Translations under genes and position numbers: made by a program
In this document: positions 19,527 to 31,092 of the stretch, piece by piece
Position numbering within the stretch: the first letter of the stretch is position 1
How the letters are laid out: each line of letters opens with the position of its first letter
The notes under the pieces: generated by a model
The model's database searches: none
What the model was told of the DNA's origin: nothing
Seen by the model: only the letters and a program-made list of their open reading frames with translations
Source of the DNA: Vulcanimicrobiota bacterium
GTDB taxonomy: Bacteria > Vulcanimicrobiota > Xenobia > Xenobiales > JADMJV01
Length of the DNA: 64,000 bases
Assembly (NCBI GenBank): GCA_019637395.1
Contig: JAHBVR010000012.1
Span: forward strand, 193,842-257,841
Reading direction: 5' to 3'

Positions 19527-20468
19527 ATGAAAATCTCGAACTTACTTTTGGCCTCTCTGGGGGCACTATCCCTGGTGGGAGGAACTCCGGCCCTGGCCGC
19601 CCCCTCTCTGCTGGTGGGCGCTCCGGCCACGCCGCAAGTAAGAAAGGCCTCGGCTATCAACGCGGTGCACTACCGCAAGCTCAAAGCCGCCGGCGCAACC
19701 TGCCATGTCGTCGAGGTGGACCTATACAACCCTCATGTGCAGCTACGCGCCTTCCGTGCCGCCGACCTGGGCACTCGCTACCGCACCTTCGGCTCCTTCG
19801 TGCGCCAGACCAGGCCGATCGCGGCTATCACCGGCACCTTTTTCGACACCGCCACCGGCACCATCATCTGCAATCTGGTGCGCGACGGCCGCCTGGTGGA
19901 AATGGGCAGCGTCGGGCACACTCTGGCGCTGGACGAAGTCAATCAGCCCAAGTGGATGAGCACGGCCGGCCAGTACGGCGGCGGCCACAACTGGAAAGAC
20001 AGTGAGTTTGCCGTCTCCAGCGGGCCCACTCTGCTGCGCGGCGGCCAGATCTGCCTCAATCCGCGCGCCGAGGGATTCCGCGACCCCGGCCTCTTCCGCC
20101 AGGCCTCGCGGGCCGGCATCGCCACCACCAGTCGCGGCAAACTCTTGCTGGTCACCGTCAACCAGGGCGTCACCCTGCACAAATTTGCCCAGGTGATGCA
20201 GGCCTTAGGCGCCAGTGACGCGCTCAACCTGGACGGCGGCAGCTCGACCGCGCTTTACGCGCGCGGCAATTACGTGAGCCGCCCCGGACGCCGCCTGACC
20301 AACGTGCTGCTGGTGACCGTCCGCCCCGGCGCCCCCATCCCCCGCGAAGTCGAACTCGAAGCTCTGCAGGCCGACGAAAACCAGCTTCAGCCGGAAAACT
20401 CGGAAGATTTCGGGCCTGCTCCCATGCCCGAAAAGATCGACCTTTCCACCCAGGACATCTGGCTCTGA
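19527..20468 (+). CDS. Phosphodiester glycosidase family protein (NAGPA/DUF2233-like), secreted
   Basis: Signal peptide MKISNLLLASLGALSLVGGTPALA; conserved LNLDGGSSTALY segment. Confidence 0.7.
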   Translation: MKISNLLLASLGALSLVGGTPALAAPSLLVGAPATPQVRKASAINAVHYRKLKAAGATCHVVEVDLYNPHVQLRAFRAADLGTRYRTFGSFVRQTRPIAAITGTFFDTATGTIICNLVRDGRLVEMGSVGHTLALDEVNQPKWMSTAGQYGGGHNWKDSEFAVSSGPTLLRGGQICLNPRAEGFRDPGLFRQASRAGIATTSRGKLLLVTVNQGVTLHKFAQVMQALGASDALNLDGGSSTALYARGNYVSRPGRRLTNVLLVTVRPGAPIPREVELEALQADENQLQPENSEDFGPAPMPEKIDLSTQDIWL

Positions 20469-21319
20469 TCGAGCACCACCCGCCGACCCAGGGCCAGCGG
20501 ATAGTTATCGGCGGCGTGCCCGAAAGCCAGGTCGGCCAGCACCGGCACCTGCCAGCGATCCACCCAGTGGCGCCACAGAGCGCCCAGGTCGCCGCACTCC
20601 ACAAAGCTGCCCAGAGCCACTCCGGCCAGACCCCGAAAGGCGCCACCGGCCTCCAATTGCACCAGCATGCGATCGAGCCGGTAAGCGGCCTCCCTGACAT
20701 CTTCCAGAGCCAGAATACAACCCTCCCCCTGGAAACCCTCAGGCGTCCCGCACAGGCAAGTCAAGACGCATAAATTACCGCCCCAGAGCCTGCCTTCAGC
20801 CCGCCCCGGACGCAGCCAGCGGCCCGACAACGGCAAGAGGCAGCCTTCTTGCACCAGCCGCCGGGTCGCCTCCAGCGAGTCCGCGTCCAAGACCGGCAAG
20901 GTCTGCACATTGGCGCAATGAAACAACTGGTGCCACCCACGTTTTTGCAGGGCGTGCAACAACGCCGAAACATCCGAAAACCCGAAGACCGGCCGGGGCG
21001 CCCCCAGCTCCGGCAGGCAGCCCACCAGCCGAGTCAGCCCGTGGCCGCCGCGCACCACCCAACAGGCATCCACCTCCGGCCCCAGCGCCCAGGCCAGCTC
21101 CTCCCGCCGCTCGTCATCCGCGGCCGCCAGAAAGGCTAACTCCGAGGGAGGAGCCGAACCGGCCAGACAGCGCTGCAAAATCGGCCCCGGCAACACCTGA
21201 AACCCCCAGGATTCAAGAATCTCCATACCCTGCCGGGTGCGCTTGAGATCAGGAGCGCCACACGGGCAAATCAAAGCCAGTTTCACGCCCTTGCCTTCGC
21301 CCCCCTCCGAACTCTTCAC
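20387..21319 (-). CDS. LD-carboxypeptidase (peptidase S66; LdcA/MccF-like)
   Basis: N-terminal VKLALICPCG; nucleophile motif GFSDVSALL; C-terminal His/Glu region. Its 3' end overlaps the convergent upstream gene by about 80 bp. Confidence 0.78.
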   Translation of the reverse strand: MKSSEGGEGKGVKLALICPCGAPDLKRTRQGMEILESWGFQVLPGPILQRCLAGSAPPSELAFLAAADDERREELAWALGPEVDACWVVRGGHGLTRLVGCLPELGAPRPVFGFSDVSALLHALQKRGWHQLFHCANVQTLPVLDADSLEATRRLVQEGCLLPLSGRWLRPGRAEGRLWGGNLCVLTCLCGTPEGFQGEGCILALEDVREAAYRLDRMLVQLEAGGAFRGLAGVALGSFVECGDLGALWRHWVDRWQVPVLADLAFGHAADNYPLALGRRVVLDQSQMSWVERSIFSGMGAGPKSSEFSG

Positions 21320-21321
21320 TC

Positions 21322-21422
21322 CTGAAACAAACGCCGGAGTTTGCTCTCAGGCAACTCCCACCGAACCCCTTCACCCTGGAGGTTTGTGAAACAAACGCCG
21401 GAGTTTGCTCTCAGGCAAACTC
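21322..21422. promoter_or_regulatory. Two tandem copies (period about 64 bp) of a 36-bp element containing the hairpin GGAGTTTGC-TCTCAG-GCAAACTCC
   Basis: TGAAACAAACGCCGGAGTTTGCTCTCAGGCAA(A)CTCC is repeated at about 21322 and about 21386. It sits immediately upstream of the predicted GTG start of the downstream gene. Confidence 0.6.
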
Positions 21423-21463
21423 CAAGCCAGGGGTTCGGCGCCCCAGCACCAAAGAAGGTTACG

Positions 21464-22225
21464 GTGCGTCTATGGTTACTCATATTGGTCAGCTGGCTCT
21501 GTCTGGTCTGGCCCGGACTGGCTCAGGAACAGCCCCCGGAACAAAAGTGCAGCGACAACCTGCAGCTCTTGCTGAGCAGCCTGACGCGCTACGGCAAAGA
21601 TCATCAGAACCGCTTTCCCGACAAACTGGAAGAACTGGTGCCTCGCTATCTCAGTGAATTGCCCAAGTGCCCGCTGGGCGGCCCCAGTTACACGCGTTAT
21701 AGCGCGGTCGAACACGATCCTGAACGAGCCGTGCTCATCTGCAGTTACCCGGCCCATGCCATCAAGCCGCCCGACTATCTGGTTCTGAGCAGCGACCGGG
21801 GCATCGAGTCCCCCTTCGCCCACGTCTCTGATCCCTCGATTTGCCGCCGCTCGCTGGTTCAACTGTTGCAAAACGTGGAGCAGCAAAGGTCAAAAATCAA
21901 CCGCTACCCGGAGCGACTACACCCAGAATCGATGTGTAGTTGCGGGGACCCCATCCAATACCAGCCGCTCCAGGAGGGGAAAAGCTTTATCGCTTACTGC
22001 CCGGGAGCCGCCCACCTCGGCTCCGGATTGGCCCCTTTCAGCCCTTCCATCGGTCCGGGCGGCCTCCAGGAGCGCAGCCTGCTATTGCCTCCGCCCAGTT
22101 CGGCCCCCCCCCACTCCAAAGGGCTTTCGGGAACGGCTCTGGCGGCCGGGGGAATGGCCCTGGCCATTCTCTTAGGCCTGGGCGTCTCGGCCATGATGCG
22201 GCGGCGCCGCGTGCGCCTCGATTAA
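21464..22225 (+). CDS. Secreted Cys-containing protein with a C-terminal hydrophobic helix and Arg cluster (sorting-signal-like tail)
   Basis: Start taken at a GTG (VRLWLLILVSWLCLVWPGLAQE signal peptide). The C-terminus reads …PPPSSAPPHSKGLSGTALAAGGMALAILLGLGVSAMMRRRRVRLD. Confidence 0.55.
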   Translation: MRLWLLILVSWLCLVWPGLAQEQPPEQKCSDNLQLLLSSLTRYGKDHQNRFPDKLEELVPRYLSELPKCPLGGPSYTRYSAVEHDPERAVLICSYPAHAIKPPDYLVLSSDRGIESPFAHVSDPSICRRSLVQLLQNVEQQRSKINRYPERLHPESMCSCGDPIQYQPLQEGKSFIAYCPGAAHLGSGLAPFSPSIGPGGLQERSLLLPPPSSAPPHSKGLSGTALAAGGMALAILLGLGVSAMMRRRRVRLD

Positions 22226-28739: not shown

Positions 28740-29537
28740 CTAAACCGGAGGTTTCTCCAAATGAGTCTGGTGCACGCACAGATCGGCGATCTTGCGCACC
28801 AGCGCGCCTACCAGGGGCACGGCGGCCATGGTTCCGCCCAGCGAAAGAAGGTTGTTCATGATACGCGACTTCAAAGTTTTGCCCTCGAACTGCTCGCGCT
28901 TGCCCTGGGCGCTCAGGCCTTCCCCCCACAGCTTGCCGGTGGCCCACTCGTAGGCAGCGCTGGTTTCACGGCGCTGGGTGCGGTTTTCTTGGACGCATGT
29001 ATAGACTTTGCGTAGATAGCCGGATTCGCCCAGACGATCGGGATCGATTTCCACCGAGGCGCCGGCATACATCAGATTAGCCCGATTAAATCCTGGAGTT
29101 TTTTCCGACATGGGAAACAGGCAGGCGCCGTCGGTTTCCACGCGCTTCTCAAAGCAATCGAAGCCCTTGGAAACTTCCTCCGGTTTGATGGCGGCGTAGC
29201 CATCCAGGTCCGAATTGGCGCCCAGACGGCCGCGCGAGAAACTGCCGGTCAGGTAAATTTTGCTGGGATAAGCAGGCAGTTCTTGCACATTCTCGAGCAA
29301 AGACCGCTGCAGCGCGTCAATGCGCGGCCCCACCTGCGCATCGGTAAAAGGCCTGGCCAGTTCGCGATCCACCTTGGACTGCCAGCGCGCCGACAACTGG
29401 TCGGAAGAACGGTGAGAAAGGTAAGTAGCCAGGTTCTCCTGCATCACTTCGTGCTGCTCGGCCGGCAGGCCGCGTTCTTTCATCAACTTGCCGGCATCAC
29501 GCCAATGCTGGTCCGGCCATTTGGTCTGGATTCTCAC
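28740..29537 (-). CDS. Nucleotidyltransferase-domain protein (Pol-beta superfamily, PF01909-like)
   Basis: LTGSFSRGRLGANSDLDGYAAI matches hG[GS]x9-13Dh[DE]h. Forms an ATGA overlap with the upstream His-box gene. The N-terminus reads MRIQTKW…. Confidence 0.65.
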   Translation of the reverse strand: MRIQTKWPDQHWRDAGKLMKERGLPAEQHEVMQENLATYLSHRSSDQLSARWQSKVDRELARPFTDAQVGPRIDALQRSLLENVQELPAYPSKIYLTGSFSRGRLGANSDLDGYAAIKPEEVSKGFDCFEKRVETDGACLFPMSEKTPGFNRANLMYAGASVEIDPDRLGESGYLRKVYTCVQENRTQRRETSAAYEWATGKLWGEGLSAQGKREQFEGKTLKSRIMNNLLSLGGTMAAVPLVGALVRKIADLCVHQTHLEKPPV

Positions 29538-30127
29538 TGGGGCATGCCCATCCGGGCCAGTTCAGCCGTCAACTGCTCTTCGCTGATCTTACCGAGAGCG
29601 AAGTTCTTGTAGGGTTCCACTTTCCAGGCGACCGGTTCGGCGCCGAGGGTATTGTAGATGGCCTTTTCCCACTTGGGCCAGAACTTGATTTTGTCGAGCG
29701 CCTTATTGCTCACGCCGATCAGACAATAGTCGGAATCGTGCGTGTTGGTGTGCCACTTGGTGTGCTTGAGAGTCTGAGCCTGGCTGCCGTAGTTGTCGCC
29801 CTTGTGATGCCACACGCCCGAAGCCAGGTCCATGGCCACGATGATGGCGCCCGCTCCCAAAGCGGTGATGGCGGCTCGGGTCAGTCCCACCGACAGGCTG
29901 CTCGAGGTGGCCAGATCGTAGCCAATCTTGGCCACCCCGGCCACTCCGACGGCGGCCGCGGCACCACGGGCGATTTTCTTGACCACGCGGTGAGCGGGCC
30001 GGGCTCCCGAAAACTCGACGGAATCGCTCTGTTCTTTGGGCTGCGGCTGGGGAGTGGTGGCGAACTTGTTGTAGCTGATCGTTACCTTCATGTTATTGTG
30101 CTGGATTTTCATCCGTCGATTCCCCAT
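29534..30127 (-). CDS. His-box membrane protein (short paralog of the 30109..31092 gene)
   Basis: Shares GVWHHKGDNYG and HTNTHDSDYCLIGVSNKALDKIKFWPKWEKAIY with its neighbour. The N-terminus carries the MKIQ / Pro-rich / SDSVEF module. Confidence 0.6.
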   Translation of the reverse strand: MGNRRMKIQHNNMKVTISYNKFATTPQPQPKEQSDSVEFSGARPAHRVVKKIARGAAAAVGVAGVAKIGYDLATSSSLSVGLTRAAITALGAGAIIVAMDLASGVWHHKGDNYGSQAQTLKHTKWHTNTHDSDYCLIGVSNKALDKIKFWPKWEKAIYNTLGAEPVAWKVEPYKNFALGKISEEQLTAELARMGMPQ

Positions 30128-31092
30128 TTCTCTTTGCGCATCGGCATCTCGGTGGCTTTGAAGCCCTTCATCATTTCTCGGGAACGGGCGATGTATTCTT
30201 CTTTGCTGATCTTGCCGTCCACGTAGTCCTTATATTCCGGGACATTCCAGGAGTCCGGCTTGGCTCCGGTGATTTTATAGATGGCCTTTTCGTAGCGGGG
30301 CCAGAACTTGATTTTGTCGAGCGGCTTGTTGAGATGGCCGGTGACGATGCAGTAATCGCTGTTCCAGGGCATGCGGTGGTGAACGCCGTGATTCTTGGGG
30401 TCGATGGCCAGGCCGGCTTTTTGGAGCAGTTTGCCGTGCTTGGGAACCTCGGTCTGCTTCATATGCGACCACTGGTGGAATTTACCGTAAACGCTCATAC
30501 CGCCGATGAGCCCGATGGCGCCGGCCAGGATGGGAGCGGGAGCCCCCAGAGCGGCGGCGCCGACCAGCGGGGCCCAGGCTACCGTGCTGAGCGGGAAGGC
30601 CCAGTAAGACAGGGAGTAGTGACCCAGTTTACCGGGGTGGAAGTGATGGCGCTGGGCCTGCTTGGCGAATTTGCGCACGAAACCGAGCTTGGCGTCGGGC
30701 TTGGCGTAGTTGTCGGCCCAGTGGTGCAGCAGCCCCGAGGGCAGGTCGGCCAGCACGTAGCCGGCGGCCAGAGCGCCGGTGGAGAGAGCGGCCGTTCCAA
30801 TGGCCGCGCCCAGCGTGGGGGCACCGGCCACGTCGGCGATGACTTTGGCGGCGCACCAGGCGCCGGAGGCGAGCACGCCGCCGAACATCAACTTCATAAA
30901 GGGGCTGCCTTCGGTATCCTTACCGGCGACACGCTTTTCTTGGAAGAATCCTTTGATGAGGCGCTGGCCCAAACCCAACTCCGGTTCTGGCCGGGAAGTC
31001 TCGAGCTGCACGCTGTCGGCGGCCGGGGCGGCCGGAGGAGCCGGCAGCAGTTTGGGCAGATTCGGTTGGCTGGGTACGCTCTGGATTTTCAT
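30109..31092 (-). CDS. His-box membrane protein, di-iron lipid desaturase/hydroxylase-like (CarF/FAD4/TMEM189-like, tentative)
   Basis: His clusters LLHHWADNY, HHFHPGK, HQWSHMK and HGVHHRMPWNSDYC, separated by hydrophobic Gly/Ala-rich helices. The N-terminus reads MKIQSVPSQPNLPKLLPAPPAAPAADSVQL. Confidence 0.6.
   Translation of the reverse strand: MKIQSVPSQPNLPKLLPAPPAAPAADSVQLETSRPEPELGLGQRLIKGFFQEKRVAGKDTEGSPFMKLMFGGVLASGAWCAAKVIADVAGAPTLGAAIGTAALSTGALAAGYVLADLPSGLLHHWADNYAKPDAKLGFVRKFAKQAQRHHFHPGKLGHYSLSYWAFPLSTVAWAPLVGAAALGAPAPILAGAIGLIGGMSVYGKFHQWSHMKQTEVPKHGKLLQKAGLAIDPKNHGVHHRMPWNSDYCIVTGHLNKPLDKIKFWPRYEKAIYKITGAKPDSWNVPEYKDYVDGKISKEEYIARSREMMKGFKATEMPMRKEKWGIDG

Follow-up and report, generated by a model that had tools for sequence, protein, structure and literature searches.

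In classical REP families, copies number from tens to hundreds per genome. REP/BIME elements, and the REPINs that are mobilised by RAYT transposases, have been described in Pseudomonas and Enterobacteria (PMC3116915, PMC3337134). The protein that recognises classical REPs is the RAYT transposase, and their mobile unit is an inverted REP doublet (PMC3116915, PMC3337134). No REP family in Eremiobacterota/Vulcanimicrobiota is described in the literature that we searched.

Here we report on a pair of hairpin repeats at 21323-21423 of a 64-kb stretch of DNA from this group (hereafter the window, meaning the whole stretch analysed). The pair lies between two divergent genes, for an LD-carboxypeptidase (Peptidase_S66) and for a 253-aa protein. 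We consider it likely that the feature is a short tandem array (~1.8 units) of an extragenic palindromic repeat that is dispersed, restricted to a lineage and of the REP/BIME-like class. The repeat family seems to be previously undescribed, and the first REP/BIME-like one in Eremiobacterota/Vulcanimicrobiota. The support comprises an insertion polymorphism at the orthologous site, a multi-locus family, an intergenic-only distribution, compensatory stems and recurrent tandem duplication. The likeness to REP/BIME lies in short palindromes of ~24-47 nt with a strictly extragenic position and a spread over many loci, within operons as well as between genes, in either orientation, often clustered and lineage-specific. 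The copies are very uniform, and their stems are kept by compensatory change. Both hairpins of the unit, B (9-bp arms, 6-nt loop) and A (6-bp arms, 3-4-nt loop), have the form of the ~20-40 nt stem-loop palindrome of a REP. The paired units are direct, with a period of 60-64 nt, unlike the inverted doublet of a REPIN; few copies are visible, namely seven or more perfect B hairpins on seven contigs of one metagenome-assembled genome (MAG), bin.189_sub, and one locus in the 64-kb window; and no RAYT is linked to the element, the called neighbour genes at all nine known loci being free of transposases. For these three reasons, we file the feature as REP/BIME-like only: it would work like a REP/BIME but is not a demonstrated member of a REPIN-RAYT system.

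Other classes of small repeats share part of this architecture. As generally characterized, pneumococcal BOX and enterobacterial ERIC elements are likewise modular, intergenic and able to form stem-loops, with module numbers that vary by deletion and duplication; the units here are much shorter and probably unrelated in sequence. MITEs and palindrome-associated elements derived from IS200/IS605 are commonly portrayed as small, non-coding and present or absent at orthologous sites, and the ends of our A-B unit are inverted (GGAAGTTTGC...GCAAACTCC), as MITE ends are, while two similar direct hairpins recall the left and right ends of IS200/IS605. However, neither a conserved target nor a parent insertion sequence was seen, and the pairing of terminal inverted repeats with a target-site duplication that marks a MITE was not found. 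No defined element ends or target-site duplication emerged at the loci, the flanks of eight copies being without consistent direct duplication, and the flank that is duplicated with each tandem pair is locus-specific. LexA/SOS boxes and attC sites were dropped as candidates, as the neighbouring genes and the consensus sequences commonly given for these sites do not fit.

Layout of the repeat and its non-coding setting

The earlier note on this DNA had reported two tandem, hairpin-containing repeats of 36 bp, spaced 64 bp apart. An exact 32-nt direct repeat, TGAAACAAACGCCGGAGTTTGCTCTCAGGCAA, indeed lies at 21323-21354 and 21387-21418, 64 nt from start to start, so that the arrangement holds once the coordinates are moved by one base; the 32-mer had no match in 100 shuffles. 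The repeat is real, whereas its length of 36 bp is an underestimate of the duplicated unit, as the ~20 nt before each 32-mer are also related (CCGAACTCTTCACTCC versus CCGAACCCCTTCACCC). Copy 2 extends to 21423 and contains the perfect inverted repeat GGAGTTTGC-TCTCAG-GCAAACTCC at 21400-21423. The hairpin of copy 1 (21336-21358) lacks one A in its 3' arm, giving the GGAGTTTGC-N6-GCAA(A)CTCC form that had been noticed before. A small hairpin that had been read in the spacer as GTTTG-TGAAA-CAAAC is found at 21382-21396 (GTTTGTGAAACAAAC, i.e. GTTTGT-GAA-ACAAAC). The region 21320-21440 as a whole reads ...CTCC TGAAACAAACGCC GGAGTTTGCTCTCAGGCAACTCC CACCGAACCCCTTCACCCTGGAG GTTTGTGAAACAAAC GCC GGAGTTTGCTCTCAGGCAAACTCC AA GCCAGGGGTTCGG...

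Two units on the + strand can thus be delimited. Unit 1 (U1, ~21300-21358) comprises the flank-like CCGAACTCTTCACTCC, a remnant of hairpin A (TGAAACAAAC) whose 5' arm is deleted, the linker GCC and a hairpin B with the one-base deletion, GGAGTTTGC-TCTCAG-GCAACTCC. Unit 2 (U2, ~21356-21423) comprises the spacer CCGAACCCCTTCACCCTGGAG, the complete hairpin A at 21382-21396, the linker GCC and the perfect hairpin B. The two share CCGAACyCyTTCACyCC 5' of the 32-mer; an indel of 10 nt, TGGAGGTTTG, which is missing from copy 1, sets them apart. The core is identical at 32 of 32 positions between the units, whereas the adjoining flank carries mismatches and indels; at the flank divergence of ~19%, 32 identical positions would be expected in ~0.1% of cases.

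The element has a single locus in the window. Neither a repeat finder, nor Tandem Repeats Finder, nor a pattern search of the 64 kb for TGAAACAAACGCCGGAGTTTGCTCTCAGGCAA with up to three mismatches allowed found a further copy there. A covariance model of the A-B unit (R1), run with filters off, matched only 21378-21425 (72 bits, E=2e-20) and 21323-21360 (28 bits, E=8e-7). The word AGTTTGC occurs 11 times against ~5 expected, 3 of the 11 lying inside the element, and was dropped as an uptake-sequence-like word, not being over-represented. Two other repeats were seen in the window. The first is a 90-nt direct repeat of 80% identity at 29619-29708 and 30242-30331, with a distance of 623 nt; its copies fall within two neighbouring ORFs on the minus strand (29534-30127 and 30109-31092), which are probably tandem paralogous genes. 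The second is a 21-nt tandem repeat, ATGATGCAAATGATGATGGGC, at 63051-63102 (two copies, 95% match), inside overlapping ORFs near the window end.

Three independent Logan contigs from different runs (L001, L002 and L005) all stop exactly at 21389, which corresponds to the first 31-mer not common to both copies. With k=31 taken as an assumption about the Logan assemblies, a break at this position is the expected effect of a 32-nt repeat, and the tandem duplication would therefore also be present in the samples behind these contigs.

Both repeats are assigned to non-coding DNA on the basis of the true start of the downstream gene, as had been proposed. The 253-aa protein gene (21464..22225, + strand) starts at GTG 21464: the NCBI protein P0001 (KF760_21070, 253 aa), from a Candidatus Eremiobacteraeota MAG, is 100% identical to its product, the 27 homologues found measure 240-278 aa (nearly all 247-260 aa), and in the DNA alignment of orthologous loci, similarity begins ~40 nt before GTG 21464 and continues into the gene. 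The longest ORF through the repeats starts at 21341 and runs on through copy 2; the codon there is TTG, not the ATG that the earlier note had considered as an upstream start, and it is used by no homologue. Exact look-ups with the 253-, 294- and 310-aa translations gave no match; for the first, whose database copy P0001 has equal length and full identity by BLASTP, the likely cause is the first residue (V instead of M for GTG), while the other two begin at starts that gene callers evidently passed over. The N-terminus of the 253-aa protein is hydrophobic and resembles a signal peptide, a membrane anchor lies at the C-terminus, and no Pfam domain was found. In JGI, a homologue of 74% identity carries the name MYXO-CTERM domain-containing protein, which fits the hydrophobic C-terminal segment followed by RRRR.

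On the other side lies the divergent LD-carboxypeptidase gene (20387..21287, - strand), recognised by its Peptidase_S66 Pfam match. From the alignment with the ATG of its orthologues, its start is most likely GTG 21287 rather than GTG 21319 of the longest ORF; orthologous Peptidase_S66 proteins are called at 278-299 aa. Measured from GTG 21287, the start-to-start spacer to the 253-aa gene is 176 bp in the window.

The proximal part of this spacer (21426..21463, + strand) is an ancestral upstream region of the 253-aa gene that is kept in all orthologues. It consists of GCCAGGGGTTCG...GCACCAAAG followed by the purine-rich AAGAAGG, the likely ribosome-binding site, and its invariant columns in upstream alignments are CCA.GGGTTC and GCA..AAAG. 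The stretch GCCAGGGGTTCG...GCACCAAAG could be aligned in the window, L011, L013-L016 and L098. In L013 and L014, the conserved upstream element forms a hairpin, CCAGGGG-TTCGC-CCCCTGG, ~25 nt before the start codon. No sigma-70-like promoter was detected in 21100-21600, and no sigma-54 or ECF-type spacing was seen by eye.

State of the spacer in related genomes

The orthologous loci were reached through exact look-ups of eight proteins homologous to the 253-aa one, and the gene order ThrC, hypothetical, NAGPA, S66(-), 253-aa(+), DLH(-) is conserved in them. The spacers differ widely in length and content. In L010-L012 (253-aa protein 81% identical to the window's) and in L013 and L014 (75-76%), they measure only 44 and 53 bp, respectively, and are free of any trace of the repeats: a CCTTCGCC-like sequence passes directly into the conserved GCCAGGGGTTCG...GCACMAAAG before the start codon, and in L011, L013 and L014, it runs straight to CCAGGGGTTCG. 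Spacers of 92-93 bp in L015-L017 (87-89%) hold a remnant only, ..TTTTGTGCAAACTCC / ...CCTCAGAATTTTGTGCAAACTCCGA, without the B hairpin, which looks like the window's U2 after a deletion between two CAAAC repeats. In L098 (86%), the 154-bp spacer holds a homologous but diverged repeat, with AAGTTTG...GCAAACTCC, with GTTCGC-TCTCAG-GCGAAC, a B hairpin that has undergone a compensatory T-A to C-G change, and with several xAAACTCC arm remnants upstream.

These short, repeat-free spacers, together with the remnant and diverged versions, indicate that the window carries a lineage-specific insertion of ~123 bp (21303-21425, + strand), delimited by alignment with the orthologous spacers and holding the whole tandem repeat. 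The 44-53 bp spacer without repeats, seen in six relatives, is the ancestral state, and the insertion has expanded and contracted among close relatives.

A further variant of the site was observed in L007 and L008 (253-aa protein 83% identical), whose spacers of ~600 bp contain unrelated sequence. In L008, from a lineage like that of bacterium SCN 62-11 (GCA_017307785.1, JAFKGI010000042.1, 2400-3000; L007 is alike), another tandem repeat is found, whose two units of 60 nt (2646-2705 and 2706-2765) are 80% identical and each have two hairpins with CCCCG/CGGGG arms in common. Direct repeats of 39 nt also occur there, at 2554-2592 and 2906-2944, with 352 bp between them. The architecture is like that of the window and the site is the same, but the sequence is unrelated. 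The S66/253-aa spacer may be a hot spot for hairpin repeats.

A dispersed family of extragenic hairpins

A scan for GGAGTTTGC-N6-GCAAACTCC over a genome collection in which each species has a single genome returned 78 stretches. Most were unrelated, many being terminator-like, with an A-run and a T-run, and some belonging to other repeat families. Seven matches came from one Vulcanimicrobiota MAG, bin.189_sub (JALHOV01), each on a contig of its own, their loops being reported as TCTCAG in five, TCTCGG in one and TATCAG in two. Six of these seven copies have the second hairpin (A) and the linker on the 5' side, and their consensus is GGAAGTTTGC-GNA-GCAAAC-SCC-GGAGTTTGC-TCTCAG-GCAAACTCC. The U2 of the window has the same layout, its A stem differing by a compensatory C-G to T-A change. 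The basic A-B unit is ~47 nt long, with A = GGAAGTTTGC-GNA-GCAAAC and B = GGAGTTTGC-TCTCAG-GCAAACTCC, both hairpins being built from the 9-mer GGRGTTTGC in alternating orientation. A scan of JGI metagenomes for the B hairpin gave one match only, on contig Ga0075163_10315649 (L096), and viral contigs gave none.

When the family loci were compared with the window by BLAST, the element alone was in common, at up to 80% identity over ~90-92 nt, i.e. the whole tandem pair. Model R1 scored the copies elsewhere at 69-76 bits, and hairpin B is identical at 24 of 24 positions between the window and bin.189_sub copies. The RpoB proteins of bin.189_sub and bacterium SCN 62-11 fall into one cluster at >=90% identity, and the SCN 62-11 orthologue of the 253-aa protein (P0006) is only 83% identical to that of the window; the family would therefore be common to at least two species-level lineages. 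Palindromes with the same 9-bp arms but other loops and flanks were also observed in multiple copies in unrelated MAGs, namely of termite-gut Spirochaetaceae, one Solirubrobacterales and one Oscillospiraceae (L031, L064, L085; L032, L051, L058; L044, L074, L088; L045, L053), and are probably independent REP-like families that share the stem by chance.

All nine loci of the family are intergenic. Three lie between divergent genes: the window, L019 (ABC permease and a secreted protein) and L041 (hybrid histidine kinase and cytidine deaminase). Five lie between co-directional genes, with the element in sense orientation in L043 (acpP to a methyltransferase gene) and L092 (rpoB to rpoC, 23 nt before the rpoC ATG), and antisense in L023 (PBP1 to a hypothetical gene), L091 (two PLD-like genes; B hairpin only) and L096 (upstream of hpt). 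The remaining one, L071, is convergent and overlaps the stop codon of a Crp-family gene. The neighbours show no functional theme, and the orientation of the element is not fixed. At five or more of the nine loci (the window, L019, L041, L043 and L092), it is in sense orientation 17-70 nt before a start codon.

Tandem pairs occur at four of the nine loci, with periods of 64 nt in the window, 64 in L041, 62 in L043 and 60 in L023, and the second copy of each pair carries ~15 nt of the upstream flank of its own locus. Because this flank is locus-specific, the duplications must have been independent and have followed insertion. The units also vary among loci by deletions between repeated arms: the first unit of L041 and L043 is GGAAGTTTGC-TCTCAG-GCAAACTCC, in which the 5' arm of A is fused to the loop of B, and L023 has an extra inverted B-like hairpin beside unit 2. 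The stems are retained throughout. Over the nine copies, 100% of the cells in the stem alignment are paired, and two-sided changes are seen in three pairs, versus 0.3 in shuffles.

These comparisons bear on the reading that the feature has no relatives elsewhere and arose only by tandem duplication on the spot, or that it is a CRISPR-like array in minimal or orphan form. The palindromic 36-37-nt repeats around a 27-28-nt spacer, with a 64 nt period, have the look of a two-repeat array, and the window holds one locus only. We nevertheless regard this reading as very improbable, given that the unit occurs singly or paired at eight other loci, that its structure varies among them by A/B deletions, and that the would-be spacer has its homologue in the flank that precedes U1. 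With two repeats only and no cas gene among the called genes around the site, a CRISPR array proper was rejected.

Regulatory readings of the element

The earlier note had proposed a candidate tandem operator for a dimeric regulator or a structured 5' leader. Its description of a non-coding, hairpin-forming repeat upstream of the gene stands; a dedication of the element to the 253-aa gene is not supported, since the element is absent in L010-L014, reduced to a remnant in L015-L017 and, as a unit, present at eight unrelated sites.

The dispersed copies could be operator sites of a global dimeric transcription factor and together form its regulon. A dimer would then bind GGAGTTTGC-N6-GCAAACTCC, and the distance of 64 bp (~six helical turns) would allow cooperative binding. 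The perfect 9-bp arms, a sequence that is kept across two lineages including the loop, the position of most copies near gene starts and the tandem periods of 60-64 nt at four loci are all consistent with such sites. The distribution of the element argues against them: the sites are absent from the orthologous promoter in six relatives although the gene is conserved, and the neighbours have no common function and include the rpoB-rpoC and acpP intercistronic regions and a convergent 3'-3' site. The form of the element does so too, as the two palindromes, which have the same arms, are spaced unequally, by 3 nt in A and by 6 nt in B, and variants keep their pairing by compensatory change rather than their sequence. 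No regulator gene was found among the called neighbours. Taken together, we find a regulon of this kind improbable. If the 253-aa gene has a dedicated regulatory site, the conserved GCCAGGGGTTCG...GCACCAAAG is a better candidate, as judged from the alignments.

A second possibility is that the 253-aa gene has in this element a cis-regulatory RNA or structured 5' leader. The fold prediction for the leader, a check that had been proposed, gave a z-score of -2.6 for RNA of the + strand, with a multi-branch structure that encloses U2 (DNA z-scores were -4.3 and, for U2, -5.0). Within the insertion, CCGAACCCCT (21361..21370, + strand) is the perfect inverted complement of the ancestral AGGGGTTCGG at 21429-21438, and in the folds, the two can pair into a closing stem of 10 bp that surrounds both hairpins of U2 and could modulate translation or stability. 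An attenuator-like alternative pairing (A 5'/A 3' and B 5'/B 3' versus A 3'/B 5') can also be read from the sequence, and a leader role would accord with the sense copies 17-70 nt before start codons in the window and the four loci named above. However, the structure is absent from orthologous leaders. In L023, L091 and L096, moreover, both genes beside the element run opposite to it, and in L071 it sits where two genes converge. The closing stem is locus-specific, with no equivalent seen in family members at other loci, and no U-tract follows the hairpin on the + strand. Rfam gave no match in the whole window at gathering thresholds, and a permissive scan of 21200-21600 gave only chance-level microRNA and snoRNA matches (E>0.3). 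A leader function of this type is thus also improbable in our judgement.

Intrinsic termination was considered separately. The + strand has no terminator-like site in a terminator scan. On the - strand, hairpin B followed by CGTTTGTTTC passes a simple terminator scan. However, the element also lies between rpoB and rpoC, where read-through would be needed if the two genes are co-transcribed, as we assume.

Proposed origin and spread as a REP/BIME-like repeat

For the reading that we prefer, a REP/BIME-like repeat, the following course of events is proposed. One copy would have entered the very short S66/253-aa spacer in the ancestor of the window lineage and its closest relatives, and would then have been duplicated in tandem with ~15-20 nt of its upstream flank, while sister lineages partly deleted or diverged their own copies. 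The element sequence is more uniform than neutral drift would allow, given the 32/32 core beside a diverged flank and a hairpin B that is 24/24 identical between lineages. Such uniformity suggests that the copies are still being made or homogenised, or that a protein recognises them; the hairpins would accordingly be kept alike through continuing copying from master copies or through such recognition, for which a REP-associated tyrosine transposase would be the textbook candidate. Effects on neighbouring genes would be side-effects of insertion, in the form of a 5' untranslated stem-loop or a wider gap between divergent promoters. In the window, the insertion would triple the distance between the divergent start codons and, according to the predicted folds, may equip the 5' part of the 253-aa mRNA with stable stem-loops. 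The element may therefore act on the expression of the 253-aa gene as an inserted repeat rather than as a conserved regulatory site.

Several observations weigh against this REP/BIME-like reading. The visible copy number of the family is low, its paired units are direct rather than inverted, no RAYT or other transposase could be linked to it, neither a target-site duplication nor defined ends were found, the conserved loop sequence would also fit a protein-binding site, and a role in the 5' untranslated region fits the sense copies before start codons in at least five of the nine loci. A more speculative, and in our view rather unlikely, alternative is that the A-B unit is a self-expanding hairpin module that the cell also uses, in 5' untranslated or intercistronic regions, as a portable tuner of translation or mRNA stability. 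Such a module would copy itself, together with ~15 nt of upstream flank, by a defined mechanism such as hairpin-directed nicking or template switching. The idea draws on the 60-64 nt pairs at four of nine loci, on a hairpin and loop that are identical across lineages and on the frequent position 17-70 nt before a start.

Significance

As a conserved operator or riboswitch for the secreted-protein gene, the repeats are a false lead. Their practical importance is modest. Repeats of this kind break short-read assemblies, as seen in the three Logan contigs that end at the repeat, and they mislead ORF-based annotation, the longest ORF here running through the repeat. The host lineages are of the Xenobia type, come from bioreactors and belong to an almost uncultured phylum, for which such repeats are useful as strain-typing markers and for studying the spread of mobile or selfish hairpin DNA.
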